The notes under the pieces: model-generated
The model's database searches: none
What the model was told of the DNA's origin: nothing
The model's input: the letters and a program-made list of their open reading frames with translations, nothing else
NCBI GenBank assembly: GCA_900554815.1
Contig: USIO01000002.1
Coordinates: forward strand, 192 to 64,191
Length of the DNA: 64,000 bases
Reading direction: 5' to 3'
Source: an uncultured Clostridium sp.
GTDB lineage: Bacteria; Bacillota; Clostridia; TANB77; CAG-508
Made by a program: the position numbers and the translations under genes
In this document: positions 1,179-46,740 of the stretch, piece by piece
Layout of the letters: each line of letters starts with the position of its first letter
How positions within the stretch are numbered: position 1 is the first letter of the stretch

Positions 1179-2024
1179 TTATTTTAATTTTTGATTTACT
1201 ATTTTTTGAATAGCATTATAATCATATCCCGCTGCAGTTAATCTATTCTTTCTGTCTGTTCCATTGCCCCATTTTCCTTGGATAACTTCATTGACAATAG
1301 TTTCATTTGATTTTTTATTTGATGATGTACTTGAAGATGTTGCACCCAGTTTTTGATTTACTATTTTTTGAATAGCATTATAATCATATCCTGCTGCAGT
1401 TAATCTATTTTTTCTATCATCTCCATTACCCCATTTTCCTTGAATAACTTCTTCGGCAATGGTTTCATTTGATTTTTTATTTGATAATGTACTTGAAGAT
1501 TCTGTTGTACTTCCACTTAATTTAGCATTTACTGTATCAGCTAATTCTTGAAATCTATTTTGCAAATATTTACCCGGACAGCTTGTAGCTGCAAACATAT
1601 TGTGCCTTGTTAAACTTCCATTTTTAGTACCATCATATTTTAATGTAAAACCATATCTTTTACATATATCTACACATAGATTAACTAAAGAATTCCATGC
1701 AGCATCAGATATTGGCCAGTCCCCTCCTGTAGAACTATTAGATACTTCTATTGTAATTGCTTGGCAGTCATTTGAAGATGAACTAGATGTCCATGCTCTA
1801 TTATTTTCATCTACACATCCTACTATTCCACCATCGTTACCAATACAATAATTTGCACTTGCCTGTCTATTTGGATTTTGGAAAAGTTTTGCACATTGTT
1901 CTCCACTTAAAACACCTGCCATGTGATGTGGTGTTATTTTACATACTTTGTAACCTTTTCTTCCTTGTGTATAGTTACTTGAAGATGCTAAAACTTTACT
2001 TTTAATTAAACTTGAAAATCCCAT
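1179..2024 (-). CDS. Endolysin: N-acetylmuramoyl-L-alanine amidase (Amidase_2/PGRP) with two C-terminal CW_7-like cell-wall-binding repeats
   Basis: HHMAG...CIGNDGGIVGCVDENNRAW...TRHNMFAATSCPG amidase core. Tandem repeat GKWGNGxDRKNRLTAAGYDYNAIQKIVNQKL x2, seen as roughly 140-bp DNA direct repeats at 1186-1330 and 1360-1500. Confidence 0.85.
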   Translation of the reverse strand: MGFSSLIKSKVLASSSNYTQGRKGYKVCKITPHHMAGVLSGEQCAKLFQNPNRQASANYCIGNDGGIVGCVDENNRAWTSSSSSNDCQAITIEVSNSSTGGDWPISDAAWNSLVNLCVDICKRYGFTLKYDGTKNGSLTRHNMFAATSCPGKYLQNRFQELADTVNAKLSGSTTESSSTLSNKKSNETIAEEVIQGKWGNGDDRKNRLTAAGYDYNAIQKIVNQKLGATSSSTSSNKKSNETIVNEVIQGKWGNGTDRKNRLTAAGYDYNAIQKIVNQKLK

Positions 2025-2104
2025 TATTCTTCGCCCTCCTCTTTACCATTTGATAATTCTTCTTCCATTTCTGGTGTTAAAGTAATTTTTTCGTTTTCTT
2101 CCAT
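2024..2104 (-). CDS. Small acidic peptide (26 aa), translationally coupled to the endolysin (TAATG overlap)
   Basis: Strong RBS AAGGAGG 7 nt upstream of ATG at 2104-2102. Translation MEENEKITLTPEMEEELSNGKEEGEE. Stop overlaps the endolysin start. Sits between holin and endolysin. Confidence 0.3.
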   Translation of the reverse strand: MEENEKITLTPEMEEELSNGKEEGEE

Positions 2105-2180
2105 AACGAATACCTCCTTTTTTAAAATAAATAAAATCCAGAAATTATTTTTTCTGGATCTTTTGAAATAATTGTTATTT

Positions 2181-2432
2181 CTATTTTGTTTTTGTTGCAT
2201 CATATATTCCTCCTGCAGCTGTTGCAGAAAAAATACATAAAATTAATGAATATAGAATATTTGTGTTTAAACCTGTAGCAAATACTAATATACCTGCGAT
2301 AATACCAATTACTATATTTTGATATGGTATATAATCTTGAGTAGCCCAATTAAACTTCTTGGCCAATGTACCAAATATAGCTGTTACTATTGCCGTTGCT
2401 ACAGCAATTATTATATCTGCTGTTAGTTCCAT
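2181..2432 (-). CDS. Holin (small protein with two hydrophobic transmembrane helices and a charged C-terminus)
   Basis: 83 aa, hydrophobic segments IIIAVATAIVTAIFG and IVIGIIAGILVFATG, C-terminus DATKTK. Position directly upstream of the endolysin. Confidence 0.7.
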   Translation of the reverse strand: MELTADIIIAVATAIVTAIFGTLAKKFNWATQDYIPYQNIVIGIIAGILVFATGLNTNILYSLILCIFSATAAGGIYDATKTK

Positions 2433-2448
2433 AACATTTCCCTCCTTT

Positions 2449-3069
2449 CTACTTTTTACTGACCATTTTTTCTAGGTTTTCTTCAATAAAAAATTTTAAT
2501 TTTAAGATTTCGTTCATTTCATCATTTGAGAAATTTACACAATTTGTTTTTGAAAATTGTAATGCTAAAAATCCTATTGGATCTCCATTTTTATTATTTA
2601 AAATAATATCAAAAAAAGAACCTATTTCTTGTCCTTTTTTTAATCCATAAGTTGCTGGCATACATTCCTTTATATCTTCTAAATTACTAATTTTCATTTG
2701 CTTTTCATTTAATAATGTTCTAATAAAACTAGGAATACAACTTAATGGAACAGCTTGAAGTTCTTTTTGATGGCTTTTTATTCCTGTTCTTACCACTTCA
2801 AAAGTACATGAAGTTTTTAAAGCACTTCTTCCATTTGCATAATGACCACCATTATGAAAATCATAGATTTGTACACGATCAGCCTTAACAAATTCTTTCA
2901 AAGCTTCCATTTTATTTGTAATTTCCATATCTATTGAGCATTGCTTTTGTATTTTTCTAGGTAAGGTATTTTCGATTTCCTTTTTAGCTTTTAAAGCTGT
3001 AGCAATAAGTGTCCCAAGTGCTGCTATTAATGCAGTTATACTTATTATTGTAGTTGTTATACTTTCCAA
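2449..3069 (-). CDS. Membrane-anchored hypothetical protein (206 aa, N-terminal TM helix)
   Basis: N-terminal hydrophobic helix TTTIISITALIAALGTLIATAL, then a soluble domain. No recognisable motif. Sits between XkdX and the holin, after a terminator. Confidence 0.35.
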   Translation of the reverse strand: MESITTTIISITALIAALGTLIATALKAKKEIENTLPRKIQKQCSIDMEITNKMEALKEFVKADRVQIYDFHNGGHYANGRSALKTSCTFEVVRTGIKSHQKELQAVPLSCIPSFIRTLLNEKQMKISNLEDIKECMPATYGLKKGQEIGSFFDIILNNKNGDPIGFLALQFSKTNCVNFSNDEMNEILKLKFFIEENLEKMVSKK

Positions 3070-3119
3070 AAACCTTTTTCCTCCTCTCTTACAATTTTTC
3101 TATAAAAACCGCAAAAAAC

Positions 3120-3160
3120 AACGCTCTAAAATCAATTTTTAGGCGTTTATTTTTTTTATT
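3120..3160. terminator. Hairpin plus T/A run at the end of the late tail operon (bidirectional)
   Basis: aacgc(t)ctaaaa-tcaat-ttttaggcgtt followed by ttattttttttatt. RC side followed by gttttttgcggttttt. Confidence 0.4.
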
Positions 3161-3217
3161 AATATACTTTTATTACTTATTTTTAAGGCTTTTTTAGAAA
3201 ATTTTGTCGCAAAAGAT

Positions 3218-3352
3218 TTATTTGTAGTCTTCTCCTGTAATTTCTTTATATTCCTCTTCTGTAATCCATTTTCCAACGGCATTATATACTCTTGTTTGGT
3301 TCCACATTCCATTTTCATAATAATTTTTTACTTTTTCAAAATTTTTACTCAT
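3218..3352 (-). CDS. xkdX: XkdX-family small phage protein (44 aa)
   Basis: MSKNFEKVKNYYENGMWNQTRVYNAVGKWITEEEYKEITGEDYK. The GKWIT.EEYKEITG C-terminal motif is characteristic of Phage_XkdX. Below the ORF-track cutoff. Confidence 0.65.
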   Translation of the reverse strand: MSKNFEKVKNYYENGMWNQTRVYNAVGKWITEEEYKEITGEDYK

Positions 3353-3355
3353 AAT

Positions 3356-3685
3356 CTACTCCTCCTCCAAGTCAATATCTGACATCATTGCTAGATATTC
3401 AATATCAGATTGCATTTTCAATTTTTCTAGTTCTGCTTCAGATATATCTCTTAAAACGAAATAGTATCCATCTTTATAGTGTGCAATTTGTACTAATTCC
3501 ATATGATTATGTTCTTCAGTAATCTCTTGTCCATCTTCAGTAGTTCCTTCTATTTTGACTTTTATTAATTTTCCTTTGAAGTCCTCCTCTGTGATTTCAG
3601 TTTCTGATACAAAATTATTTCCATTTAAACCTAAGTTTTCAAGTTTTGTTCCATCAGCCAATGTAATTTTCCATGATTTTTCCAT
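3356..3685 (-). CDS. Hypothetical phage protein; XkdW-like call rests only on position and size
   Basis: 109 aa acidic protein immediately upstream of xkdX. Overlaps the RT 3' end by 55 nt. Confidence 0.3.
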   Translation of the reverse strand: MEKSWKITLADGTKLENLGLNGNNFVSETEITEEDFKGKLIKVKIEGTTEDGQEITEEHNHMELVQIAHYKDGYYFVLRDISEAELEKLKMQSDIEYLAMMSDIDLEEE

Positions 3686-4749
3686 GTTACCCTCCTTTTA
3701 AATAAATCATAATATAATTGTGACATATTACTTATTTGTAATCTTGACATATTTTTATAGTTTCCTGCCATCCAACTTTTAAATGTATTTTCTATCTCAT
3801 CATAAGTTAATCTTTTCTTTTCTAATAATCTTTTATATGCTTTCAATTTTCTGCGTTCTCGTGTTATTGCTTTAGGATGTATCTTCTTTATCAACCTACC
3901 TGTTTCAGTTAACTGATATTGTATTTGTAATATTCTAAAAGGTTGAGATAATTTGCACAAGTGTGTTTTTTTAGGATTAATTATTAAGCCTAATTTATCA
4001 GCTATTTCTTTTATTTCTCTCAATAACTTTTTTAAGAAGTCTTTATCTTCATGAATTATATAAAGATCATCCGTATATCTTCCATAATGTTTAACACCTT
4101 TTACGATTTTAATATAATTATCAATTTTTACAGGATAAGAAATTCCTATATTTTGTGAAGGTTGACTTCCTATATCAACACCTCTGTTATTTTTATTATC
4201 TATATTAAATATTTCAAATAAATTACTTAATATCCATAATGTTATTTTTGCTTCGTCTTTATCTGCTTTCTTTAATAAATTATATGTATTTTGTAAACAT
4301 AATTTGTGAGGAATACTAGCATAATAACTGCTAAAATCAATCAATAATATATATCCTTCATTATTTTTATGCTTTCTATAATATCTATGTAAGTGTGTTT
4401 CTAATCTTTTTCTGTGGAAGGATACTCCTTTGCCCTTTTGACTAGCTCCATTATCATAAATTAAATATGGAGAAATAGCTTTACTTAAAACATTATCACA
4501 AAGTAGATGATTTATAGTTTTATCCACCATATTGTCTGTTGTTATATGTCTTATTTTTCCTCTTTCTTTAATTATAAATTTTCTTCCTTTAGAAGGCCTA
4601 TACTTTCCTTCAATTAACTTTTTCTGTAATTCAGCAGTTTCTAATAATTGGTTCATTTCAAATAAGTGTGATTGATATTTGAAAGGAGCTCCTTTAATTG
4701 CTTTTTTTCCTGCCTCATATATTGCATTTGCATCATAAAAAACATTCAT
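3631..4749 (-). CDS. DGR reverse transcriptase
   Basis: RT motifs present: YILLIDFSSYYASIPH (motif A), IGSQPSQNIGISYP (DGR-typical I-G-x-x-x-S-Q motif B), RYTDDLYIIHED (YxDD motif C). 372 aa, typical DGR RT size. Lies adjacent to a TR/VR pair. Confidence 0.9.
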   Translation of the reverse strand: MNVFYDANAIYEAGKKAIKGAPFKYQSHLFEMNQLLETAELQKKLIEGKYRPSKGRKFIIKERGKIRHITTDNMVDKTINHLLCDNVLSKAISPYLIYDNGASQKGKGVSFHRKRLETHLHRYYRKHKNNEGYILLIDFSSYYASIPHKLCLQNTYNLLKKADKDEAKITLWILSNLFEIFNIDNKNNRGVDIGSQPSQNIGISYPVKIDNYIKIVKGVKHYGRYTDDLYIIHEDKDFLKKLLREIKEIADKLGLIINPKKTHLCKLSQPFRILQIQYQLTETGRLIKKIHPKAITRERRKLKAYKRLLEKKRLTYDEIENTFKSWMAGNYKNMSRLQISNMSQLYYDLFKRRVTWKNHGKLHWLMEQNLKT

Positions 4750-4894
4750 AAATCACTTTAATAGTATTACTGGTCGTAACCAAATACATAATGATTAGTA
4801 TTTATCAACATTTACTTGTTGAAGGGATAATCTTTCCTTTCCTTTTCCCATTGCCCTGCTATGAAAGCTTAGTTCATATATATTGCATGGTTGT

Positions 4895-4989
4895 GAAATC
4901 GGGACGAACGCCATTCGAGTTCGAAGCAGAGTTGTTGTTGGCATTGCCATTGCTGTTAACATTAGCGAAGTTCGAAGAAGAAGCGACAT
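4895..4989 (-). repeat. DGR template repeat (TR)
   Basis: About 91 bp homologous to 5662-5756. All 15 mismatches are at TR adenines on the coding (minus) strand. TR frame carries AAC/AAT codons (..NFANVNSNGNANNNSASNSNG..). Confidence 0.85.
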
Positions 4990-5008
4990 ATAAAGATTAC
5001 CCACTAAA

Positions 5009-5521
5009 TTATTTTTTTATGTTTTTTAGAAACCTATTGTCAGACTGTCTGAGTGCTTTTATCATATTAAATTCTTGTTGAATTAATAAAACTAAATTTG
5101 TATACTTATTAAGATCTGCATATAAACATTCTCCTACATACTGTAGTTCATCTTGAAGTGCGTTGCAGCACGACATTGCTCTATCCATTTCTATTCTTCT
5201 TTCTTCAAATTCAGAAATGTATGTTGGAAATATTGTATTTGCAATTCTTAAGTGTCTACTTATTCCTGTCGCTAGTTCTATTACACTATTTGTAGAACGG
5301 TTTAATTGTTGTTCAAAATATTGATAAGTTCTTTTTTTTATTTTTTGCTGTTCTTCTTCTGGAAATCTTTTAATTTTCTCTGCAATAATATTTTCTACCT
5401 TTGAACTATTTATATAGAAATCATTTTCAGCTAGCTTAGTTACCGCCATTCTAATTTTATATGCATTATGTATAGTCTGTAATTTTGATTCTTTCCTTTC
5501 ACTCTTTTTTATATCTGACAT
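5009..5521 (-). CDS. avd: Putative DGR accessory variability determinant (Avd-like), basic helical protein
   Basis: Sits between target gene and TR, which is the canonical avd position. 170 aa, K/R/E-rich and predicted helical. No direct motif proof. Confidence 0.45.
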   Translation of the reverse strand: MSDIKKSERKESKLQTIHNAYKIRMAVTKLAENDFYINSSKVENIIAEKIKRFPEEEQQKIKKRTYQYFEQQLNRSTNSVIELATGISRHLRIANTIFPTYISEFEERRIEMDRAMSCCNALQDELQYVGECLYADLNKYTNLVLLIQQEFNMIKALRQSDNRFLKNIKK

Positions 5522-5619
5522 TTAAAATAATACTATTTCTCCTTTTCTGCAATTTTCGACAAAATTATATCATTTTAAATTTATTAATTTAACTATTTTG
5601 AAGAACCACTATATTATAT

Positions 5620-5640
5620 GTCAGGGCATAAAGCCCTGAC
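5620..5640 (-). other. GC-rich hairpin immediately 3' of VR/IMH (candidate DGR homing-enhancing stem-loop)
   Basis: gtcagggc-ataaa-gccctgac, 8-bp perfect GC-rich stem. Sits 10 nt past the target stop codon and is not followed by a T-run on the transcript strand. Confidence 0.5.
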
Positions 5641-5649
5641 GATGTCTGA

Positions 5650-6510
5650 TTAGTAGATTAGGAAAGCGGGACGAACGCCACCCGAGCCCGAAGCAGAGCC
5701 GCTGTAGGCAAGGCCATAGCCGTTAACAAAAGCGAAGTACGAAGAAGAAGCGACATCCCTTAACCAATAATAATGTCTTGTTCCTGAATCATTAAAAGCT
5801 GTTATTAAATCTTTTCTATGTTGAAATAATGATAACTGAGACTTATCTATTGTAATATTGCCGGTTGGCAAGCTAGTTCCATTTATTACATTATGAAATA
5901 CATTAGTTCCATACACCATTATTTCATTCATTAGTTCTATTGTGCTATCAACCCATGAGCCTGCACTTTCATATCCGCTAGTTGTAGCATTAGCTAAATA
6001 ATTTCTATGTGATAGGATATGAGCAATTTCAAAATCATTTTGTATAATAGTTTTAAATGGAGCCAAATTTTCTGTGTACATTTTGCTTCCTACATAAGCA
6101 CCGGTTGTAACATTGGTTTCATTCATTTGAGCACTACCCATTGTTTTTTCTGGTATCATTAAAACATGATGAGTTGTACACTCTGTATCTCCACAGTGAA
6201 GTCTATAATCTAAGTCTGCTACTATATATTTTCTATTACTATTTTTCCCTATGATATAATCTCCTACAAATATATCATCAAATGTTCCTGCAGCTATTTG
6301 TTCGCTTAATGTTCCATCATAGAATAAGTCTGTTATATCTTGCCCTCTATAAATAGAATTATGAGCACCTGCATTTTGTGGTATTAACCCACTTAATAAT
6401 TTGGATAATAGCACTTTTTTAGTTTTTCCATTTGTAGTATCTACAATTGGAATTACATCATTATTATTTATTGTTAGTAATTCTTCTAATTCTGATATTT
6501 TTTTAATCAT
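5650..6510 (-). CDS. DGR variable target protein: tail-fibre/receptor-binding-like, C-terminal C-type-lectin-like variable domain (DUF1566/FGE-like ending ..HYYWLRD..VRPAF)
   Basis: 286 aa. VR covers the last 32 codons (DVASSSYFAFVNGYGLAYSGSASGSGGVRPAFLIY). First ORF after the tail genes. RBS AAGGAGGG. Confidence 0.8.
   Translation of the reverse strand: MIKKISELEELLTINNNDVIPIVDTTNGKTKKVLLSKLLSGLIPQNAGAHNSIYRGQDITDLFYDGTLSEQIAAGTFDDIFVGDYIIGKNSNRKYIVADLDYRLHCGDTECTTHHVLMIPEKTMGSAQMNETNVTTGAYVGSKMYTENLAPFKTIIQNDFEIAHILSHRNYLANATTSGYESAGSWVDSTIELMNEIMVYGTNVFHNVINGTSLPTGNITIDKSQLSLFQHRKDLITAFNDSGTRHYYWLRDVASSSYFAFVNGYGLAYSGSASGSGGVRPAFLIY
5662..5756 (-). repeat. DGR variable repeat (VR) with IMH-like GC element (ggcgttcgtcccg) at its 3' end
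   Basis: Differs from TR only at positions where TR has A on the coding strand (A to C/G/T). Invariant GC-rich 3' segment shared with TR, then divergent flanks (IMH versus IMH*). Confidence 0.85.
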
Positions 6511-6523
6511 TTTTACCCTCCTT

Positions 6524-7369
6524 TTACATTCCGCAAGCTAGATATTCATTATCTTCTGTTACTAGATAATCTCCATCCTCTGTTACTATTGCAGAAATTG
6601 ATTCCATCAACATTTGTGTTAAATTATCTATTTGTAATTGCAAGTTTCCTGCTGCATCTTCAGATAATTGGTCTTTCATTTGTTGAAACCAAGTATCAAA
6701 TGCATTTTCTTCTTGAGAAAAGAAATTTGCCATTGCTTGCTTAAATTCTGTAAAATATTCATCGTGTTCCGCTTCTTGATCTTCATAATATTTTTGATAT
6801 GCAGCCTGCCATTGGGCATATAATGTTGAAGTATCTACTTGGTATATTAAACTTGTAACCCAAGGACATTCATTACTTCCTCTGCAGTCTGTTATTAGAT
6901 TTTGTGTGACTTTTACACAAGAAGGACTAATAATTATATCAGCTAATCTTAACTCAAAAATATTTTCCTCAGTATTAATTTCTGGATGTACAGGATTACT
7001 TGAAGCAGACCCCTGTCTATATACTATATTTCCTACTCTTCCTGCTTGTGTTTTATCTACTTGAGCCACTATACTGTCTATTCTTGATAAAACTTCCGAG
7101 TTTTGTGATATAGTTATTATCAAGTCGCTTGGATTTTCAAACCATTTGTCTCCAATTATTGCATTACCTGCGGAAACTATTACATTCATTCCATTATTTG
7201 CAGAAAATACTTGTAAATCATCGGATGCTTCGCCCTTTGGTGTTGCAAAAACACCATTGCTTACTAATCTTCTGTAAGGTCTATTCATATCATCTGCAGA
7301 ATAAGTTCTATCCTCATTTATTGCATCAAAAAATCCTGCATTTACATTATATTTTACATCGCTTGACAT
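6524..7369 (-). CDS. Phage tail fibre/baseplate-associated structural protein (hypothetical)
   Basis: 281 aa between the Tal-like gene and the DGR target. Q/E-rich coiled C-terminal part. No motif recognised. Confidence 0.35.
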   Translation of the reverse strand: MSSDVKYNVNAGFFDAINEDRTYSADDMNRPYRRLVSNGVFATPKGEASDDLQVFSANNGMNVIVSAGNAIIGDKWFENPSDLIITISQNSEVLSRIDSIVAQVDKTQAGRVGNIVYRQGSASSNPVHPEINTEENIFELRLADIIISPSCVKVTQNLITDCRGSNECPWVTSLIYQVDTSTLYAQWQAAYQKYYEDQEAEHDEYFTEFKQAMANFFSQEENAFDTWFQQMKDQLSEDAAGNLQLQIDNLTQMLMESISAIVTEDGDYLVTEDNEYLACGM

Positions 7370-7381
7370 ATTTTCCTCCTT

Positions 7382-8533
7382 TTAAACATTTTCAAATGTA
7401 GGCTCCATTGAATATCCTTTTTCATTTCTGCTTTCTATTATTTCTGTTATTCTCGCATTAACTGACATTCCATATTCATTCAATATTCTTACAATATCGC
7501 CTAAGTTATAATCTTTTTTGTATATATAATTAACACCTGTGATAATTTTTCCAGAGAAGGATGTAACCTGTACACATTCTGACATTTTTTCATATCCCAC
7601 ACCTTTTAAATTTTCAGTATATACATTATTACATAGTTTTACCTCTTCTACTTCTCCTTCTTCGTTCTTTGTGATAATTGCTATGTTATTTCCATTTACT
7701 TGATAATAAATTACATTGTTAATTGTTTTTTCTATTCCATTTGGATAACTACTTACAAGTTCATCATAATCTATTGTACTTGAAACATCTCGAGCATCAA
7801 CATACAATTCGTTTCTGTCAATTCCTCTTTCACTTCCAATAGTAGTCGTTTTCCTATCTACTCCTTCGCCTTCTCCTGCTATTAATGCAACATTTTTAAT
7901 ATTGCTATTATCTTCTACATAATCCGTGGTTGATATATTGTCATAGTTTTGTGAAAAAGTAATATACTGACTTCTATCTTCTCCTTTATACAATGAAAAA
8001 ACAAAGTTACCATTTTTTATAGTAACTTTGTATCCCCATCCAAATTGTTGACAAATTTCTTGTACCTTATCTCCTATATAATCATATGTTACTTGTTCTC
8101 GAATAGTTTCAGTAAATCCTTTTTTGTCATCAAGTATAAAATTACTAATTTTACGATTAGGATCCTTTGGATTAATAAATGCATCGGTAATTAGCTTTCT
8201 TATGTAGTCCTCAGCTAACCCATTAAAATTAGTTTGATTCATAACTATTCTTTTATTTAGAATATCTTTTATATCTGTACCTGTAATAATTATTTGGTCT
8301 CCATTTTCTTCATCAGTCTGTATCTCTATCTTCTTAATTTCACAGGACATTTCGTCATCTTCACGAGAAATATACCTACATTCTTTTACTTTGTTTAAAT
8401 TTTCTTTTGATGCTTGAATAACTAATTCACAATCTCCTAATGTATTATATCTTGGTGACCATATAGCACTTGAATATGTGTCAATTATATATATTTTTTT
8501 TAAGTTTTCATCTAATAAATATAGTTCCTCCAT
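7382..8533 (-). CDS. Tail-associated protein (Tal-like / phage minor structural protein, siphovirus tail tip)
   Basis: Follows Dit in gene order. N-terminus MEELYLLDENLKKIYIIDTYSSAIWSPRYN resembles the prophage tail endopeptidase N-domain. Confidence 0.5.
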   Translation of the reverse strand: MEELYLLDENLKKIYIIDTYSSAIWSPRYNTLGDCELVIQASKENLNKVKECRYISREDDEMSCEIKKIEIQTDEENGDQIIITGTDIKDILNKRIVMNQTNFNGLAEDYIRKLITDAFINPKDPNRKISNFILDDKKGFTETIREQVTYDYIGDKVQEICQQFGWGYKVTIKNGNFVFSLYKGEDRSQYITFSQNYDNISTTDYVEDNSNIKNVALIAGEGEGVDRKTTTIGSERGIDRNELYVDARDVSSTIDYDELVSSYPNGIEKTINNVIYYQVNGNNIAIITKNEEGEVEEVKLCNNVYTENLKGVGYEKMSECVQVTSFSGKIITGVNYIYKKDYNLGDIVRILNEYGMSVNARITEIIESRNEKGYSMEPTFENV

Positions 8534-8535
8534 AA

Positions 8536-9396
8536 CTAAACTCCTAAATAAACCTTATAGTAATTAAATTGAATATCTACTGACATATCAGAAGTTCCAT
8601 CATCAGCTAAGAAACTAAAATTATTGTCTCCTATACCTAATTGAAAGAAAGTGGATCCACTTCTTACATAAGGTATTAAATTATATGCTAAAGCATCTCT
8701 AGTTAATATAACTGATTTACTTCCTCTATTGCAATTTATAATCAATTTATCGTTTGCCATAAAATTATAATCTATTATAAAATTCTGGCCATTATCTATG
8801 TTACGAATTTCTAATTTATCTACTCTGCCCATAAATGTTACATTAACAATAAGACCTGTTTCGCTCTCACTTTCATTAATAACATTTGTTATTTTTTCTA
8901 ATTCTATTTCTGAAAAAGCGATTGGTTCTCCTATATTTATTGAAAATGGAAAAGTAAATTTTTTTAGAGCCTTTGAGATACTTTGTACTATTGTTTCTAT
9001 ATCTTTAAAATATGGATCTGGGCATAATATAGAAATTTGTGCAACTTGTTTTTGTGTAAAAATAGGAGCTTCAAAGGCTTGTACATATCCTTCAATATAT
9101 ACATCCCTTTGGTCATCGGTATAATAAATTTTACACCAATTCTTATTTCTAAAATATTGATATAATGTTAATCTATTGGTTTGAACATCTCCATTAATAT
9201 AAACGGTGATAACTATTTCTCTATTAGGTATTTTAGAACTATTAAAAGCTGAGCCATCTCCATTTGCAAAATCTGATGTATTTATCGTTGCATTTGGAGG
9301 ATTCAAACCTTCAACATTAGTTACTTGAAAATTTGTTTCATCATTTGTAAGTTCTAAAATCGCACCTTTAGCATTTTCAACTTTTAAACTAAACAT
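8536..9396 (-). CDS. Distal tail protein (Dit, phage tail family protein)
   Basis: 286 aa gene immediately downstream of the tape measure gene, the canonical Dit position. Confidence 0.5.
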   Translation of the reverse strand: MFSLKVENAKGAILELTNDETNFQVTNVEGLNPPNATINTSDFANGDGSAFNSSKIPNREIVITVYINGDVQTNRLTLYQYFRNKNWCKIYYTDDQRDVYIEGYVQAFEAPIFTQKQVAQISILCPDPYFKDIETIVQSISKALKKFTFPFSINIGEPIAFSEIELEKITNVINESESETGLIVNVTFMGRVDKLEIRNIDNGQNFIIDYNFMANDKLIINCNRGSKSVILTRDALAYNLIPYVRSGSTFFQLGIGDNNFSFLADDGTSDMSVDIQFNYYKVYLGV

Positions 9397-9406
9397 ATTT
9401 TCCCTC

Positions 9407-12400
9407 CTATTTTACTGTTACTAGGTTTAATAAGTTTTTTGTTTGTCTATATAATTCTAATCTTGAAGGTTGTTTTGGAGCATTTATTACTTGAGTAAAA
9501 TTATTTACATTCGATGTTGTATTAGATACATTATTTATATTTGATGCATTGGTTTTTACTATTTGGTCTTTCATTTCATTGGCCACAGCTTTTATCCAAT
9601 GTTTATTTCTTTCAAGTGGTACTACAGCCTCAGCACCAGAACCTTCTAATAATCCAACTTCTCCTTTTCTTAATACTCCACCCTTTGCAAGTCTTGGAAG
9701 ATTAACTCTATTAAAGTTACCTATATTTACTCCGGGTATATTATTAATTAAATTTATTGCACCATTTATCATATCAATACCTTTATTAATTACATTTTCA
9801 ATCATTGATATAATACCATTAATTCCTGACTTTACTGCTCCTCCAATGGCATCTCCTATTGTTGTTCCTAAACTTGAAAATTTATTACTAATTGTATTCC
9901 AAAGTCCTCCAAAGAAGTCTCCTACTTTTCCGAATATACTTGTAATATTATTCCAAGCCTCTTGGAATTTGTCTTTAAACCAGTTTCCTACATTTGAAAA
10001 TGCACCACTGATACTACTCCATGCATTAGATGCCCATTCTTTGGCTGTTGACCATGCTTTTTTAGAATTTTCATTTGCTTGTGTAAATTTTTCTTTAAAC
10101 CAATTCCCTGCATTTGAAAAAGCACTTGTAATATTATTCCAAGTATTAGATGCCCATTCTTTAGTATTTGCCCACGCATTTTGTATATTTTCTTTTGCAT
10201 TAGAGAACTTCTCTCCAAACCAACTACCAACATTTGAAAATACATTTTTTATTCCTTCCCATGCTCCACTAAAGAATTCTCCTAATTGGGCAGGTAATTG
10301 TGCAAGTCCTTGGAATATTGCTGTAATAATTTGTGGTATTGCTTTTATTAATTCAATACAAATTTGAGGTATTGCAGTAACAAGTCCCATAAATAATTGT
10401 ACTGCTCCTGCAATTAATGTTGGTAGATTTTGAAGTAGGGTTGTTACTATTGTGGTAATTATTTTTGGAATTTCTGGAATTAATGCTTGTATAATTTGTG
10501 GAATTGCTTGTACTATTCCCATAAGTAATTGTACAGCACCATTTATAATAGCATCTAATCCATTAATTAGTCCATTTACTATTGCTTGTATTATTGTTGG
10601 TAATGCATCAATAAGAGCAGCTATAATCTCTGGAATTGCATCTATAATACCCATTAATAATTGTATTGCTCCATCAATTATAAGAGGTATTCCAGTAATT
10701 AAGCCATTAACAATACTATTTATAATCTGTGGTAGAGCATTTAAAATAGCCTTAATAACTGTTGGTATTGCATCTATAATTGCCATAAAAAAATCAATCG
10801 CTCCTTGAATTAATTGTGGTATTCCATCAACGAGAGATTGAACTATTTGTGGTATTATATTAACTATTTGTACTAAAATTTCTGGTATCATTTGGCCTAG
10901 ACCTGTTAGCAAACTTTGTATTATTTGAGCTCCTACTGATACTAACTTTGGTAACATACTTAACAATGATTGTGTTATCTGCGGTATTAAATTCATTATG
11001 GTTTGAATTACTTGTGGCAATGCATTTATAATTCCTTGTATCAAAGATGTTATTATTTGTACGCCTATGTTTAAGATTGTTGGTAATGCCTCAGTTAGTT
11101 TTGATAGTAGCATATCTAAAGTTACAGATATTCCACTTGTCAATAATTCTGCTGCTCCAGTAGTTCCTTCCATTAGACCTCTAACGCCATCTCCAATTTG
11201 TTCAAGGCCAGGTAACATTGTATTTACCAAATCAGCAATTCCTTGCTTAAATGCAGTTATTATTGGCATTGCCACTCTACCCATTTCTGACATTGCTGTA
11301 CTCATATTAGCTGTTGCTTCTCTCGATGCTATTAAATCTCCATTAACATCTTTGTAGGCATCTGTAGCACTTTGATATGTTTTGCTCAATGTTTCTGTAA
11401 TTAATGTTGCTCTTTCTTGTTCACTATTACATTGAGCTAATTGCTGATTGAATTTATCTTCAGATATACCTGCCCAATTTAAAGCATCAGCTAGAGGACC
11501 TGTAACTTGTCCCACTTTTGCAGTTTCGTTAGCCGCTTCTGTTAATCCTTCCAGAGGTAAGCTATCGCCAAATGTTGCATACACACCTGTTGCTATGTCA
11601 GTCCACTTTGAAAGTTCTTCTTCGCTCTTTGTTAACTTAGCCAAGTGGTTTACTGCTTCAACAGATTGGTCTGTTTCTCCTAATATTCCAACCATTCCTT
11701 GAAAAGATTTTTGTGCAGCTTCTGTAGAGTGTCCTGCACTTGTAAAAGCAGCTTCGAGTTTTCCCATATCCTCCATAGTATCTTGTGTTGCTGCTCCAGT
11801 AGCCAAAAAACCCGCAACAGCTCCTGCTGCCGCGGTTGCTATACCCATTAAACCTTTTTTAAGTCCTCCACCTAATTTGCTTGCTAAACTATCACTATTT
11901 TTTTCTGCTTTTTGTGCAGCATCTCCTACTTCTTTTAATCCCTTAGCTGCTTTGCTACTTGATTTGTTCGTATCATTTGAATTACTTTCTACTTCGTCAA
12001 GAGCACTACTATATTGTCTTATTTCTTTTTCTGTCTTATTTACTGCAGCTTGTTGATTTAAAATAGTTACTTTTAATTTATCTGCCATATTTGCATTTGC
12101 AGTTTGCTCTTTTTCTACATCTGTTAAGGCTTTTTCATATTTTTTATATTCATCGGATGTCTTTGAAATTCCTTGACTAGATAATTGTTGAAGTTTTGCT
12201 TTTAATTCATCTGCTTTTTTCCCATTTTCTTGCTCTGCTTTTTCAACTGCTTGCAATTGAGATTTATAATTATCAAGTTTCTTATTTTCTTCAATTAATA
12301 CTGAGTTTAATTGTTTTAATTTTGCATTTAATCCATCACTTGATTTTGTCCAGTCATCCATACCTGCACTAGCTGCTTTAAATTCTGCATTTGCGAGTTT

Positions 12401-12487
12401 TATATTTTTGTTTGCTTCAGTTATACCTTTTTTTAATTCAGATATATCGACTTTAAATTTTGTTGTTATATCTTCTCCTTTTGGCAT
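9407..12487 (-). CDS. Tail tape measure protein
   Basis: 1026 aa. N-terminal coiled coil. Long hydrophobic repeat block (IIPQIVQSL.., roughly 33-aa repeats) and 3-4 copies of NAWANTKEWASN..FSNAGNWFKEKF. Lies between chaperone and Dit. Confidence 0.85.
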   Translation of the reverse strand: MPKGEDITTKFKVDISELKKGITEANKNIKLANAEFKAASAGMDDWTKSSDGLNAKLKQLNSVLIEENKKLDNYKSQLQAVEKAEQENGKKADELKAKLQQLSSQGISKTSDEYKKYEKALTDVEKEQTANANMADKLKVTILNQQAAVNKTEKEIRQYSSALDEVESNSNDTNKSSSKAAKGLKEVGDAAQKAEKNSDSLASKLGGGLKKGLMGIATAAAGAVAGFLATGAATQDTMEDMGKLEAAFTSAGHSTEAAQKSFQGMVGILGETDQSVEAVNHLAKLTKSEEELSKWTDIATGVYATFGDSLPLEGLTEAANETAKVGQVTGPLADALNWAGISEDKFNQQLAQCNSEQERATLITETLSKTYQSATDAYKDVNGDLIASREATANMSTAMSEMGRVAMPIITAFKQGIADLVNTMLPGLEQIGDGVRGLMEGTTGAAELLTSGISVTLDMLLSKLTEALPTILNIGVQIITSLIQGIINALPQVIQTIMNLIPQITQSLLSMLPKLVSVGAQIIQSLLTGLGQMIPEILVQIVNIIPQIVQSLVDGIPQLIQGAIDFFMAIIDAIPTVIKAILNALPQIINSIVNGLITGIPLIIDGAIQLLMGIIDAIPEIIAALIDALPTIIQAIVNGLINGLDAIINGAVQLLMGIVQAIPQIIQALIPEIPKIITTIVTTLLQNLPTLIAGAVQLFMGLVTAIPQICIELIKAIPQIITAIFQGLAQLPAQLGEFFSGAWEGIKNVFSNVGSWFGEKFSNAKENIQNAWANTKEWASNTWNNITSAFSNAGNWFKEKFTQANENSKKAWSTAKEWASNAWSSISGAFSNVGNWFKDKFQEAWNNITSIFGKVGDFFGGLWNTISNKFSSLGTTIGDAIGGAVKSGINGIISMIENVINKGIDMINGAINLINNIPGVNIGNFNRVNLPRLAKGGVLRKGEVGLLEGSGAEAVVPLERNKHWIKAVANEMKDQIVKTNASNINNVSNTTSNVNNFTQVINAPKQPSRLELYRQTKNLLNLVTVK

Positions 12488-24261: not shown

Positions 24262-24335
24262 CTTTGGTTGCGGACATAGGATTCGAACCTCGTCTATGGG
24301 ATATGACCCCATCGTGCTGCCTTTGCACCATCTCC
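24262..24335 (-). ncRNA. Degenerate tRNA-fMet-like element (CAU anticodon loop), possible phage-borne tRNA or pseudo-tRNA
   Basis: GGTTCGAATCC T-loop and acceptor ..CCGCAACCA. D-stem GTGC/GCAC and anticodon stem ATGGG/CCCAT with loop GTCATAT. T-stem only 3 bp and one acceptor mismatch. Confidence 0.4.
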
Positions 24336-24487
24336 GCAATATAAAAAGCTACCTAAAGGGGAAGGTAGCTCTACAAAATTGGAAAAAGATATATGAAATT
24401 TCATATTTGCAATTTTTTGCAATTATAATTGTAACATATTATTTTTTTTAATAATACGGACAAAATATATAAATTTTATGTACAAAA

Positions 24488-35407: not shown

Positions 35408-36796
35408 ATGAATACTACAGGTACTCGTAGAGCTAATGGCGAAGGATCTATCTACGATACTATACAAAAGATACCTAGAAGAAAAAAATTGGATCGTGAA
35501 TGCGATATTTGTAAAAACTGTACTGATAGAAATATATGTAATAATCGTACTGGCTCAGCCAAATGTCAGAAGTGCGTTGAGTGTACTGACTGCTTAAAAT
35601 ATTGTGACCGCTTCTATTGTTATTTTAGATATCAAGCTCAGATTTCCATAGATAAAAAACAGACTACTGTTGCTAATGAAGAAAAGAAAAAAGCTGCAGT
35701 TGATAAAAAATTAAATGTAGAAGCAAAAGTCCATACTAAGAGCTATGTAAAAAAACATGGTATCACTATTATTGAAGTATGTAAAAAAATAGGAAATACA
35801 AAATTTGAAGCAGGAAAAATCGTAAAAAATACAAAGGATAAAGATAAATATCATTACAAATATATTGAGAACTGGCCAGATTTTCAAAAGCCAGTACAAA
35901 AAGTAACTTATAATGAAGTCCAAGATTTTCTTAATTCCATAAGGCATCTCTCACAAGGAGAAATAGAAAAAATAGTTGCTAAACTAAAAGCAGGCTTTAT
36001 GCAATGTGTATTAGATAAAATAATAGCCTATCCAGATAATCCTATGTTAAGGATATATATTCCTGTTTCCTTACAGAAAAAAGAACCTGTGCAGGCTTTT
36101 GAAATTGAGGAGCAAAGAAAATTAATAAAATATTTACTAACTAAGCCTTTGGTAAAAAGTTCTAGATGTAATTATGATGAAGAAACTCTAAGGAATTTAT
36201 TTATATGTGCATTATTATCTGCTGCAAGAATTGGAGAATTAGGATCCATTGATATTGATAAAAATATAGATTTAAAGGCTAGCGGATTCACAATAAATCG
36301 AACATTATCTAGTGATGGTGGAAAAATCATTATGGGCAAAACTACTAAAACTGGTCGTAAAAAAGTAGAGCAAGGCTTGTTAGATGAAAGGTTTGTACCA
36401 TTTGATATTTTTGATGAAAACTTCATGCTAGACATTGTCAAAAATCAAATAAAAAATGCACGAAGTAATCCAAATAATAAGGAAAATCTTTTGTTTTGTC
36501 AGTTAGATGGTAGTTATATAGACCATCGTTCCATAAATAATATATTTAAAAGGATTTGTAGAGAAGCAGGTGTAAAATTAGAACTTCCTAAGGGATGTCA
36601 TACTCACATGTGTAGGCATACTGCTGTTACTAGGATGATTGAAGCCGGAATGGATCTTCTGGTTATTGCAGCTATCCTTGGCCATGTTGATGACCGCCAA
36701 ATAAGAGAGACTTATGGTCATATTCTCGCACGATATATAAACAAGCAGTTAAAGGATTGTAGAGTTTATTCTAAAAAGATAAAACTTTGTGCTTAG
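35408..36796 (+). CDS. int: Tyrosine integrase (phage integrase family) with an unusual Cys-rich N-terminal extension
   Basis: Catalytic region CRHTAVTRMIEAG...LGHVDDRQIRETYGHI (HxxR...Y). N-terminus has 10 or more Cys (CDICKNC..C..C..CQKCVEC..C..C). Confidence 0.85.
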   Translation: MNTTGTRRANGEGSIYDTIQKIPRRKKLDRECDICKNCTDRNICNNRTGSAKCQKCVECTDCLKYCDRFYCYFRYQAQISIDKKQTTVANEEKKKAAVDKKLNVEAKVHTKSYVKKHGITIIEVCKKIGNTKFEAGKIVKNTKDKDKYHYKYIENWPDFQKPVQKVTYNEVQDFLNSIRHLSQGEIEKIVAKLKAGFMQCVLDKIIAYPDNPMLRIYIPVSLQKKEPVQAFEIEEQRKLIKYLLTKPLVKSSRCNYDEETLRNLFICALLSAARIGELGSIDIDKNIDLKASGFTINRTLSSDGGKIIMGKTTKTGRKKVEQGLLDERFVPFDIFDENFMLDIVKNQIKNARSNPNNKENLLFCQLDGSYIDHRSINNIFKRICREAGVKLELPKGCHTHMCRHTAVTRMIEAGMDLLVIAAILGHVDDRQIRETYGHILARYINKQLKDCRVYSKKIKLCA

Positions 36797-37191: not shown

Positions 37192-37265
<74 letters not shown>

Positions 37266-43568: not shown

Positions 43569-46346
43569 TTATACTTTAATAGCGTCACTACATCTATGGC
43601 AAATTGTTGGATTATCTTTATCTTCTCCTACTGTTGTAGAATACATCCAGCATCTTTCGCATTTTTTTCCATCAGCCATTTCTACTTTTACCCCTATTTT
43701 TTCGTTTTCATCTTTTCTTGCATTTTCTTCTATAAATACTTGAGAAACAATTAAAACCGGTTGTAAGTGTTCTTCCACTTCTTTTAAGAATTTATAATTT
43801 TCTCCTTCTGCATATAAAGTAACTTTCGCATTTAAAGAATGTCCAATAACTTTTTCTGTTCTTGCTATTTCTAATTTTTTAGCAACTAATTCTTTTATTT
43901 TTTCAATTTTATTCCACTTTTTAACTAATTCTTTATTATTATATTCTTCGTTTAAATTTGGCCAAGATGTTAGCATTGGGCTTTGGGTACTCTCATCCTT
44001 TTTATGTGGCATAAAATTCCAAATTTCCTCTGCCGTAAAAACTGTCATTGGTGCTAATAGCTTTACTAATACATCCAATATTATGTACATAGTAGTTTGT
44101 GCAGCTCTTCTTTCTTTAGATTTTGGTTTTGAAGTATATAATCTATCTTTAATAATATCTAAATAGAAATTACTCATATCGTTTACGCAAAATTTATTAA
44201 TTTCATGGTAAGCTACGTGGAAGTCATAGTTGTCATAACTTTGTGTAACATTTTTAATTAATTCATTTAATTTATATAATGCATATTTATCTATTTCCAA
44301 TAAACTTTCATATTCTAGTGGTTCATTAGGATCATAGTCAGATATATTTCCCAATATATATCTTGCTGTATTTCTTATTTTCCTATATACTTCTGTAATT
44401 TGCTTTAAAATATCTTTAGATAAACTAATTTCTGATTTGTAATCTGAAGATAATACCCATAGTCTTAAAATATCTGCACCATATTCTTTTATAATATCTT
44501 GTGGGCTAATTACATTTCCCTCTGATTTAGACATTTTTCTGCCCTTATCATCAATTACAAATCCATGTGTTAACACTTCTTTATATGGTGCAACACCATG
44601 TGCAGCAACAGATGTAAGTAATGAACTTTGGAACCAACCTCTATATTGATCGTTTCCTTCTAAGTACATATCTGCTGATGGTAAACCTCTTGCAGCTAGC
44701 ACTCCTTCATATGTAGTTCCAGAGTCAAACCATACATCCATGATGTCTGTCTCAATTTTAAAGTCTTTATTACCACAAGAAGAACATGTAGCTCCTTTTG
44801 GCATTAATTCTTCTATAGGTAATTCATACCAAGATGTAGATCCTTTTTCTTTAAATATTTTTATAATTTTTTGGATAGATTCTTCAGTAATATATTCATT
44901 ACCACATTCTTTGCAGTAAAATATAGGAATAGGCACTCCCCATGTACGTTGTCTAGAAATGCACCAATCTGCTCTTTCTTGTACCATACTTGCAATTCTT
45001 TCTTCTCCCCAAGCAGGGTACCATTTTACCTTTTTTATTTCTTCTAATGCTTTTTCTCTAAAGTCTTCTATAGAAGCAAACCATTGGTCTGTAGCTCTAA
45101 AAATAATTGGATTTTTGCATCTCCAGCAGTGTGGATATTGATGAACGATTTTTTCTTTGCTTAGCAAATATCCATTTCCCTCAAGCCATTCAATAATTGC
45201 CTCATTTGATTTTGCATAATATAATCCATTAAATGGTCCTGCTCCTTCTGTTTGATATCCTTTTCCATCTACTGTAACAACAATTTCTAATCCATTTTTT
45301 AGTCCACATAAATAGTCTTCTTTACCATACCCAGGAGCTGTATGTACTGCTCCTGTTCCTGTATCCAATTCAACTACAATTGTATCTTCACTACCCAGAA
45401 CAACTTTTGAATCTCTGTCTAAAAATGGGTGCTTGCAAATAGTTCCTACTAATTCTTTTCCACTAAATTGCTGAATTGTATTGTAATTTGTTATTTTAGC
45501 CAATTTCATTACTTGTTCAACTAATTGCGTTGCTAAAATATAGTTTTCTTTTTCTGTTTCTACTACACTATATTCAAAATCCTCTCCAATTGTAATAGCA
45601 ACATTACCTGGTAAAGTCCATGGAGTTGTTGTCCATATTACAAAATAGGTTGGTTTTTTTGTTAATAATTTTGTTGAAGGCTTACTTACTTCAAATTTTA
45701 CATAAATAGATGTTGTTTCATGTTCTTTATATTCAATTTCGGCTTCTGCTAATGCTGTTTCACAATCTGTACACCAGTAAACCGGTTTTAAGCCCTTGTA
45801 AATATATCCCTTTTTAAACATCTCCCAAAATATTTCAATCTGTTTAGCCTCAAACTCTGGTTGTAAAGTAATGTATGGATGATCCCAGTCTCCTAAAACT
45901 CCAAGTCTTTTAAAACCTTCTGTTTGTTTTTCTACAAAGCTTAAAGCAAAATCTCTACAAGTATTTCTAAATTTGGCAACACTTACTTCGTCTCTGTTGA
46001 TTCCTAAAACTTGAATTGCTCTTTTTTCTGTTGGTAAGCCATGTGTATCGTATCCTGGAATATATGGCGTATTATATCCTTTTAAATTTTTATACCTAAC
46101 AACTGTATCTTTCAATATTTTATTTAATGCATGTCCTATGTGAATTTCTCCATTTGCATATGGAGGTCCATCATGCAAAATAAAATATTCATTTTTTTCA
46201 TTTTTCTTTAGCATTTTTTCATATAGTCCATCATTAAAAACTCTTTCCATTACTTTCGGCTCATTTTCTGGCAAATTTGCCCTCATTGGAAAATCTGTTT
46301 TTGGTAAATTTAATGTTGTTCCATAGTCTTTCTTTTTTTCTTCCAT
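43569..46346 (-). CDS. ileS: Isoleucine--tRNA ligase
   Basis: HIGH motif PYANGEIHIGH. KMSKS motif GRKMSKSEGN. C-terminal zinc finger CERCW...CHRC. 925 aa. Confidence 0.95.
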   Translation of the reverse strand: MEEKKKDYGTTLNLPKTDFPMRANLPENEPKVMERVFNDGLYEKMLKKNEKNEYFILHDGPPYANGEIHIGHALNKILKDTVVRYKNLKGYNTPYIPGYDTHGLPTEKRAIQVLGINRDEVSVAKFRNTCRDFALSFVEKQTEGFKRLGVLGDWDHPYITLQPEFEAKQIEIFWEMFKKGYIYKGLKPVYWCTDCETALAEAEIEYKEHETTSIYVKFEVSKPSTKLLTKKPTYFVIWTTTPWTLPGNVAITIGEDFEYSVVETEKENYILATQLVEQVMKLAKITNYNTIQQFSGKELVGTICKHPFLDRDSKVVLGSEDTIVVELDTGTGAVHTAPGYGKEDYLCGLKNGLEIVVTVDGKGYQTEGAGPFNGLYYAKSNEAIIEWLEGNGYLLSKEKIVHQYPHCWRCKNPIIFRATDQWFASIEDFREKALEEIKKVKWYPAWGEERIASMVQERADWCISRQRTWGVPIPIFYCKECGNEYITEESIQKIIKIFKEKGSTSWYELPIEELMPKGATCSSCGNKDFKIETDIMDVWFDSGTTYEGVLAARGLPSADMYLEGNDQYRGWFQSSLLTSVAAHGVAPYKEVLTHGFVIDDKGRKMSKSEGNVISPQDIIKEYGADILRLWVLSSDYKSEISLSKDILKQITEVYRKIRNTARYILGNISDYDPNEPLEYESLLEIDKYALYKLNELIKNVTQSYDNYDFHVAYHEINKFCVNDMSNFYLDIIKDRLYTSKPKSKERRAAQTTMYIILDVLVKLLAPMTVFTAEEIWNFMPHKKDESTQSPMLTSWPNLNEEYNNKELVKKWNKIEKIKELVAKKLEIARTEKVIGHSLNAKVTLYAEGENYKFLKEVEEHLQPVLIVSQVFIEENARKDENEKIGVKVEMADGKKCERCWMYSTTVGEDKDNPTICHRCSDAIKV

Positions 46347-46349
46347 TAT

Positions 46350-46620
46350 AGTTCCCCCTTTAAATAATCATTTTTTAAATTAAATCAATTATAAAAAAAT
46401 TCGCCCTATTAATAGGACGAATTTTTTTCCGTGGTACCACCTAATTTAAAAATAATTATACATTATTTTTCTCTTTAAAATCTGTAACGAAGATTAACGT
46501 CTTATTCTACTTAGTTCAAATAAGCAACTTAAAAAGGTGATAACAATCATTTTTATCTTACTAGAATTTCAGCAGTATCTAGCTCTCTTTAAAGAATATT
46601 ACATAATTGTCTTGTCCTCA
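46350..46620 (-). promoter_or_regulatory. T-box riboswitch leader of ileS
   Basis: T-box sequence AATTAGGTGGTACCACGG (RC of about 46428-46447). Terminator hairpin aattcgtcct-attaat-agggcgaatt plus U-run at about 46395-46430. Confidence 0.55.
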
Positions 46621-46740
46621 TCATGGTCTTTTAATTTATAAAATATATATAAGAATATCATTTTTTTCTTTATATTGCAAGCATTTTTACAATGGGCAAC
46701 ATCCTTTTTTTGGAATTGCCACAAAATATTTTATATTAGT

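Follow-up and report, generated by a model that had tools for sequence, protein, structure and literature searches.

Diversity-Generating Retroelements and the Locus Considered Here

In prokaryotes, targeted protein hypermutation is known from a single natural system, the diversity-generating retroelements (DGRs), which occur commonly in gut phages. The locus considered here lies in a 64,000-nucleotide stretch of DNA (hereafter the window) from an uncultured Clostridium sp. (assembly GCA_900554815.1, contig USIO01000002.1, positions 192 to 64,191), in which a first-pass annotation, made from the letters alone, had pointed to a template repeat (TR) and a variable repeat (VR) differing only at adenines of the former. 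With a probability of roughly 95%, this locus is a working and ordinary DGR of the Bordetella phage type, harboured by a temperate prophage of siphovirus-like type in the AT-rich genome of a Clostridia bacterium.

The DGR of Bordetella phage BPP-1 is laid out as mtd with its VR, bbp7 (avd), TR, a gap of 144 nt and brt. The window has the same gene order and strand logic, with a gap of 145 nt; all of its elements lie on the minus strand, in the order target gene with VR, hairpin, accessory gene, TR, spacer and reverse transcriptase (RT) gene. The flanking RT, the accessory gene, the hairpin and the structured spacer, all of them present, go beyond what the first-pass annotation had described. 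The parts of the cassette, including the putative initiation of mutagenic homing site (IMH) and its counterpart in TR (IMH*), are the following:

5650-6510, minus strand: DGR target gene (286 aa), which closes the tail module, with a C-terminal VR and a C-terminal domain matching DUF6273
5662-5756, minus strand: VR, encoding target residues 253-283, with twelve hypervariable codons
5662-5679, minus strand: putative IMH, composed of the GC-rich block GGCGTTCGTCCCG (5667-5679), an invariant C (5666) and TTTC (5662-5665)
5620-5640, minus strand: GC-rich hairpin/cruciform, 21 nt downstream of VR, with a perfect 8-bp stem GTCAGGGC/GCCCTGAC and the loop TTTAT (coding strand)
5009-5521, minus strand: accessory gene, 170 aa, whose product is basic and predicted to be all-helical, an Avd-like four-helix bundle with extra helices
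4895-4989, minus strand: TR, rich in AAC/AAT and encoding no real protein, with a putative IMH* at 4895-4912 that holds an invariant A at 4899
4750-4894, minus strand: structured non-coding spacer (Sp), 145 nt, between TR and the RT gene, supported by covariation
3631-4749, minus strand: DGR reverse transcriptase, 372 aa, identified by RVT_1, phrog_1423, a match to bRT and its motifs

The likeness to BPP-1 extends to the position of VR at the 3' end of a tail-module gene, the adenine-specific substitutions, the (I/V/L)GxxxSQ motif of an RT whose only sequence match in the PDB is bRT, the GC-rich block followed by differences between TR and VR (IMH/IMH*), the 8-bp GC-rich hairpin found downstream of VR only, and the structured RNA downstream of TR. 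The two systems differ in the length of the repeat (134 bp in BPP-1 and 95 bp in the window), in the target (Mtd in BPP-1 and a DUF6273-type domain in the window), in the hairpin loop (GAAA/GRNA in BPP-1 and a 5-nt TTTAT/CTTGT here) and in the host, a low-GC Clostridia bacterium in the present case. In addition, the accessory protein of the window has 170 residues and is without sequence similarity to bAvd, and its putative IMH and IMH* are set apart by one fixed position in the shared stretch.

DGRs with DUF6273 targets have been described in phages of gut Firmicutes, namely the Faecalibacterium prophages Lelie, Roos and Pioen, the phages nd4/nd12 and the Roseburia phage Shimadzu, where, as in the window, VR is placed at the C-terminus of the DUF6273 domain (PMC10743442, PMC11792537). 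Their RTs match that of the window by tblastn at an identity of only 30-34%, and some of these elements have two targets (tentaclins with immunoglobulin domains) whereas the window has one VR. The closest annotated phage record is that of Acutalibacter phage Fontainebleau (ON453893.1, locus L046), an inducible prophage of A. muris of the OMM12 consortium, whose RT and accessory protein are 46.5% and 46% identical to those of the window. Fontainebleau carries a homologous DGR at 1216-4038 with the same gene order, a TR/VR pair of 94 bp in which 16 adenines are substituted, the same fixed GATTTC/GCTTTC difference and a GC-rich hairpin after VR; it departs from the window by three non-A differences between TR and VR and by a higher GC content. 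This DGR is unannotated in the record, where the target, the accessory gene and a spurious open reading frame (ORF) over TR are all labelled “hypothetical protein”, and the paper describing the phage makes no mention of a DGR.

Taken against what defines a DGR, the window thus contains an adenine-specific TR/VR pair, an RT of the DGR clade, a VR placed inside a coding target and an invariant TR near the RT gene, together with a GC-rich inverted repeat downstream of VR and, among relatives, differing VR alleles on the same background.

An Adenine-Only Substitution Spectrum

An unprompted repeat search returns TR (4895-4989) and VR (5662-5756) as a direct repeat of two copies, 95 nt long, offset by 767 and 83% identical without gaps; the pair aligning over 90 bp at 83% identity that the first-pass annotation had reported was found independently, as part of this repeat. 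The differences between the two copies were tabulated base by base on the minus (coding) strand. Within the block 4900-4989, where TR is composed of 22 A, 25 T, 17 G and 26 C, there are 15 substitutions (8 A>G, 6 A>T and 1 A>C), which touch 15 of the 22 TR adenines and none of the 68 other bases; over the full 95-nt repeat, substitutions are found at 16 of 23 adenines and at 0 of 72 other bases. By the hypergeometric distribution, differences limited to adenines would arise by chance with a probability of 3.7e-12 in the 90-nt block; in the full repeat of 95 nt the figure is 4.4e-13. Exact tabulation therefore agrees with the claim that all differences sit at TR adenines, 15 out of 22, with no mismatch elsewhere; only the number of other bases, put at about 69, needs correcting to 68. 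The dinucleotide changes listed in the first-pass annotation and its peptides in the target frame (..SSSNFANVNSNGNANNNSASNSNGVRPDF for TR and ..SSSYFAFVNGYGLAYSGSASGSGGVRPAF for VR) match the sequence exactly.

The sixteenth difference, between 4899 in TR and 5666 in VR, is also located at a TR adenine and is a fixed A-to-C difference in every relative. Because of this fixation, 15 is the right count of mutagenic events, and the A/C difference is most likely a marker that tells IMH* from IMH, not a product of random mutagenesis.

TR is, as had been remarked, full of AAC/AAT codons, and this composition has a direct counterpart in the target family: in an alignment of 39 target-family sequences, the 12 most variable columns coincide exactly with the 12 TR codons in which an adenine varies (N258, N261, N263, S264, N265, N267, N269-N271, S272, N275 and N277). 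When both strands of the 64-kb window are scanned with all TR adenines treated as N, no further VR-like copy is found; TR and VR being the sole copies, the element has one VR. The G+C content is 46% in TR and 57% in VR, as compared with 28.5% in the whole window.

Variable Repeat Alleles on Near-Identical Backgrounds

For a wider comparison, 41 loci with related RTs (51-97% identity) were taken from metagenome-assembled genomes (MAGs) and IMG/VR. A TR/VR pair of 91-99 nt occupies the same position in 39 of the 41. Over a fixed 90-nt block in 36 distinct pairs, adenine sites are changed in 474 of 855 cases (55.4%) and non-adenine sites in 22 of 2,385 (0.92%); these fixed-block rates, like the unbiased scoring applied to Fontainebleau, agree with an initial scan whose score favoured A mismatches. 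A megablast of 3300-7400 against 50,697 phage records gives no match, and relatives are reached only by protein or in MAG, IMG/VR and ENA contigs.

The target protein of the window belongs to a 90%-identity cluster of 136 members. Among the 13 full-length members that were read, nine match the window at residues 1-257 (with a single N27K in P0253) and otherwise differ only at VR codons holding a TR adenine, so that ten alleles stand on one backbone. An exact look-up of the window target protein in the contig index returned no record, though the protein is present in the cluster table.

At the DNA level, the ENA metagenome contig L043 aligns with the window without gaps over 8,861 bp with 25 mismatches, 17 of which are inside the 95-bp VR. 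The rest of the cassette, 2,785 bp comprising the target outside VR, the intergenic DNA, the accessory gene, TR, the spacer and the RT gene, is free of mismatches; this corresponds to a divergence of 0.09% outside VR and 18% inside. A second contig, L044, likewise has 17 mismatches in VR and none in the non-VR target, the accessory gene, TR or the spacer. TR is identical in the window, L043, L044 and a further locus, L019, and each VR differs from it at its own subset of adenine sites. As the mismatches are concentrated in VR and TR is identical, VR has been rewritten since these genomes diverged by about 0.1%. The activity of the DGR is thus directly seen in VR-only differences among near-identical relatives; the proposal that the element has been active, made in the first-pass annotation together with the suggestion to compare VR alleles, holds in L043 and L044, which share TR and backbone with the window and differ from it in VR, the alleles diverging at TR-adenine sites.

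L019 displays a different pattern with respect to the window: its TR and spacer are identical and its accessory gene 99.6% identical, and it is 15.5% divergent in the target outside VR and 4.7% divergent in the RT. This pattern suggests mosaic recombination within the cassette.

The Reverse Transcriptase and the Structured Spacer

The RT matches RVT_1 (E 4.9e-14) and phrog_1423, “reverse transcriptase” (E 1.8e-53). Among all PDB chains, its sole sequence match is the BPP-1 bRT (8ub7_A, E 3e-8), in which IGSLTSQ stands opposite the IGSQPSQ of the window. This motif-4 signature occupies residues 193-199 (4153-4173) and the catalytic YTDD residues 225-228 (4066-4077); motifs are found at both positions in 11 of the 12 RT relatives examined. 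The sequence (I/V/L)GxxxSQ in domain 4 is a recognised signature of DGR RTs (PMC3521204).

An ORF of 109 aa at 3356-3685 on the minus strand, encoding an acidic protein (pI, isoelectric point, 4.4), shares 55 nt with the RT gene at the 3' end of the latter. It is kept in L043 and L044, where it is followed by a 44-aa gene of the XkdX family; it has no family match and is a candidate part either of the DGR or of the phage tail-fibre accessory genes.

Between TR and the RT gene, the spacer is predicted to fold into a conserved structure. The segment from IMH* to the start of the RT gene was aligned across 17 diverse loci, and the RNAalifold consensus contains 24 pairs, 15 of which have compensatory double changes. 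Paired cells amount to 98.8%, as compared with 36-61% in controls whose partners are shifted by 1-3 columns; these controls attain a covariation score of at most 0.176, as against 0.547 for the structure itself, and none of 500 shuffles reaches the observed value. The stems best supported by covariation are 4873-4876/4862-4865, 4818-4822/4805-4809 and 4779-4787/4764-4774. Two further stems can be made out by eye, one (CCATGC/GTATGG) surrounding the first hairpin and the other (AATCA/TGATT) ahead of the RT start; they were left out of the count because the alignment is offset between clades. No Rfam family covers the spacer. In BPP-1, a non-coding segment downstream of TR binds Avd and makes a privileged site for processive cDNA synthesis (PMC6182149); the spacer is the putative natural counterpart of this segment.

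Putative Homing Signals: IMH, IMH* and the Downstream Hairpin

The first-pass annotation had also reported a GC-rich block, invariant at the 3' end of both repeats and with divergent flanks, that behaves like IMH/IMH*. The block, GGCGTTCGTCCCG, is indeed present at 4900-4912 and 5667-5679; it is followed by an A in TR (4899) or a C in VR (5666), then by TTTC, and from there on by unrelated sequence. The A/C difference is identical in all relatives, including the clade at 53% identity and phage Fontainebleau, and residue A282, encoded at this site, is invariant in 39 of 39 proteins. As the other TR adenines change in 55% of cases and this one shows the same difference throughout, the 4899/5666 position most likely lies outside the transferred tract, and this single fixed position is most likely part of what distinguishes IMH from IMH*. 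A common block, an invariant A/C, the ensuing divergence and a hairpin after VR alone all fit the IMH/IMH* reading, the homing function being putative.

A GC-rich inverted repeat downstream of VR is known in BPP-1 and in about a third of DGRs. In the window, the hairpin follows VR only and not TR. Across 40 loci, it occurs as 11 distinct stem/loop variants, all of them perfectly paired over 7-10 bp, GC-rich, with a 5-nt loop (TTTAT or CTTGT), located 19-26 nt from VR and without a T-run; the stem shows compensatory base changes. In BPP-1, the hairpin/cruciform is needed for efficient homing, with the structure of the stem mattering and its sequence not (PMC3240598), and a comparable role may be played by the hairpin here. 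An intrinsic terminator was considered for this element and rejected, there being no T-run after the stem in any relative and 0 sites in a terminator scan.

Three observations concern the same region. In L017 (hairpin at about 5170-5195 of the locus), the loop ACAAG is the reverse complement of the CTTGT found in 12 sister loci; L017 and these loci have the same stem, CCCGGCCC/GGGCCGGG, and the loop of L017 is apparently flipped. At 5641-5661 on the minus strand, between VR and the hairpin, a direct repeat TAATC-NNN-TAATC (TGATC in the GC-richer clade) is conserved in all related loci and spans the target stop codon; it may follow from the protein ending in a conserved FLIY*, or it may belong to the target site. 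Lastly, a promoter-like match at 5613-5642 on the minus strand (TCGTCA, 18 nt, TATAAT, 10/12) overlaps the hairpin just upstream of the accessory gene and is a possible promoter for the accessory-TR-RT transcript; in DNA as AT-rich as this, matches of the kind hardly exceed chance, with 32 found and 22 +/- 4.6 expected.

The Target Protein

The C-terminal domain of the target matches DUF6273 (PF19789) with 24.1 bits, slightly over the cut-off of 23.5, residues 224-285 aligning with profile positions 106-170 of 172; PF19789 is present in most of the 4,068 homologs of the protein. Against the PDB, nothing meaningful is matched by the target, whether as a single sequence or as a profile. In gut-phage DGR targets, DUF6273 has been modelled as C-type-lectin-like, with VR on an exposed, hypervariable beta-hairpin (PMC10743442, PMC11792537). 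The target gene is the last of the tail module and is therefore in the usual place of a receptor-binding protein; its product is a candidate for this function.

An Accessory Protein of Avd-Like Shape

The accessory gene sits between the target gene and TR, an Avd-like position, and encodes 170 aa as compared with 128 aa for bAvd. The AlphaFold model of the protein (pLDDT, predicted local distance difference test, 84.8) is all-helical, with four long helices and one short, and in this model the protein has the four-helix bundle of an Avd, resembling bAvd and Xcc0516. Its best structural matches are 2gsc_A, 2rld_A and Avd itself; 2rld_A is presumably of the same family as 2gsc (PF05635). The 2gsc structure is the representative of PF05635 and is regarded as a bAvd homologue (PMC10053308). 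The protein has a pI of 9.17 and its family a mean pI of 9.03 +/- 0.23; Avd proteins have a pI of 9.5 +/- 0.7 (PMC5758913). The accessory protein CH1 of Wu et al. (160-169 aa) was tried as an identity for the window protein and rejected, CH1 being acidic (pI 4.7) and the window protein basic (PMC5758913).

This resemblance in shape, charge and position has no counterpart in sequence. The protein matches no Pfam or NCBIfam family, including PF05635 and PF22296, the family found in the homologs of bAvd itself; in CDD, Avd corresponds to cd16375. When 31 members of its family (the window protein and 30 close homologs) are compared with Pfam at E <= 10, and 10 distant homologs at E <= 0.1, the matches are scattered chance ones in both cases, none of them to PF05635 or PF22296. 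Nothing meaningful is matched in the PDB by the single sequence or its profile. By hhalign, the single sequence shows no similarity to bAvd, and a profile of 46 accessory sequences aligned with one of 31 bAvd sequences has a probability of 0.3%, the narrowness of the bAvd profile (Neff 2.2) making this a weak test. The family is by no means small, with 205 close homologs and at least 505 clusters at 50% identity in a profile search, all without annotation.

This raises the question as to whether the 170-aa protein is a divergent Avd at all or belongs to a separate accessory family that shares only the helical-bundle shape, perhaps with a different recognition of RNA or target. The missing family and PDB matches, the low profile-profile probability, the larger size with five helices and the many unannotated clusters all speak for a separate family, as does a hairpin loop that also departs from the BPP-1 rule; we nevertheless regard this as the less probable view and put it forward tentatively. 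Equally tentative, and on balance doubtful, is a broader proposal in which the accessory family, the hairpin with its 5-nt loop, the fixed A/C switch and a spacer fold of its own would together define a distinct lineage of Clostridia-phage DGRs, with RNA and target rules unlike those of BPP-1.

Proposed Mechanism and Alternative Explanations

In the mechanism proposed for an ordinary Bordetella-phage-type DGR, a minus-strand transcript would cover the accessory gene, TR, the spacer and the RT gene. The TR-spacer RNA would adopt the conserved fold and recruit both the RT and the accessory protein with its basic, helical character; the RT would then make a cDNA faithful to TR except opposite adenines, where any base may enter, and this cDNA would take the place of VR in the 3'-terminal part of the tail-module gene. 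Homing would be directed by IMH, i.e., the GC-rich block and the C distinguishing IMH from IMH*, and aided by the GC-rich hairpin 21 nt downstream. The outcome would be a phage population whose putative receptor-binding protein varies at 12 codons. The sequences themselves show the spectrum limited to adenines, the genes and their order, the signature of the RT, covariation in spacer and hairpin, and variation confined to VR among nearly identical genomes. The RNA intermediate, the RT-accessory complex and the priming within the spacer are carried over from the BPP-1 literature, as are the presumed roles of IMH and hairpin and the binding of a receptor by the target.

Several points weigh against this reading. 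The link drawn between the RT and the variation of VR comes from comparing sequences. The hairpin loop has 5 nt (TTTAT or CTTGT) instead of the 4-nt GRNA loop that is critical in BPP-1 (PMC3240598). The AlphaFold2 (AF2) model of the target, made with the 39-sequence alignment, has a pLDDT of 44.2 and so does not confirm a C-type-lectin fold, which may be proposed for this protein only from the published models of other DUF6273 targets. A few non-A differences also occur in relatives, e.g., one synonymous C>T in the VR of L043; rare non-canonical changes are known in DGRs (PMC5758913).

It could be argued that the cassette is a relic, in which VR was diversified formerly and the TR/VR differences are historical, the element being inactive now. 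One genome by itself cannot separate past from present activity, and only a weak promoter-like match precedes the accessory gene. All ORFs are intact, however, and the RT retains both YTDD and IGSQPSQ; divergence is confined to VR to such an extent (0.09% outside and 18% inside, with an identical TR), and the ten VR alleles on one protein backbone come from different samples, that very recent rewriting is required, and we consider a relic very improbable.

The weakest alternative, an ordinary duplication in which no reverse transcription was involved and VR diverged through point mutations, with diversifying selection acting on a receptor-binding loop, can draw on the frequency of such selection on receptor-binding loops and on the mosaic nature of the target outside VR (15.5% divergence from L019), but it is next to negligible, as selection cannot restrict changes to the adenines of a second, non-coding copy at a distance of 767 bp (none of the 68 non-A bases is changed, P about 4e-12), the same pattern recurs in 36 independent pairs, and a DGR-type RT adjoins the template.

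The Prophage and Its Host

The left half of the window (1179-36796) is a temperate siphovirus-type prophage, in which the virion protein gene at 6524-7369 is followed by the DGR target gene, the DGR and small genes. Its other features are the following:

Upstream of the tape measure gene, minus strand: large terminase (TerL), portal and capsid
9407-12487, minus strand: tape measure
8536-9396, minus strand: Dit
7382-8533, minus strand: Sipho_Gp37-like protein
6524-7369, minus strand: virion protein
1179-2024, minus strand: Amidase_2/CW_7 endolysin
35408-36796: tyrosine integrase, adjoining tRNA-Gly together with an S24/HTH repressor
37192-37265: tRNA-Gly(tcc), adjoining the end of the prophage
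24265-24338: tRNA-Met, inside the prophage

The tRNA-Gly(tcc) is likely to be the attachment site of the prophage. The tape measure gene at 9407-12487 has no Pfam match and contains internal tandem repeats: a unit of about 132 nt occurs four times at 10316-10804, the copies being 61-71% identical, and a 120-nt unit occurs two to three times at 9965-10244. In the part of the window that belongs to the host, a T-box leader at 46410-46633 on the minus strand (104 bits, above the Rfam threshold) precedes a 925-aa class I tRNA synthetase (43569-46346, minus strand) with a zinc finger of the isoleucyl-tRNA synthetase (IleRS) type.

Significance

The mechanism is a textbook one and the kind of system is well described, so the locus brings no new principle. 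What it adds is modest: accessory proteins that current Avd models fail to detect, a hairpin loop of 5 nt, one fixed position at which the putative IMH and IMH* switch, and covariation in favour of a spacer fold. Its value lies in being an unusually clean natural record, in which genomes recovered from different samples are nearly the same except in the 95-bp VR. A compact template of 95 bp with 12 variable codons is available in this family, along with a well-defined spacer fold and a hairpin, both backed by covariation. As a cultured and inducible phage of the OMM12 mouse model, Fontainebleau would make a DGR of a Gram-positive gut phage experimentally tractable, and it would allow one to ask whether an accessory protein unlike Avd in sequence does the same job.

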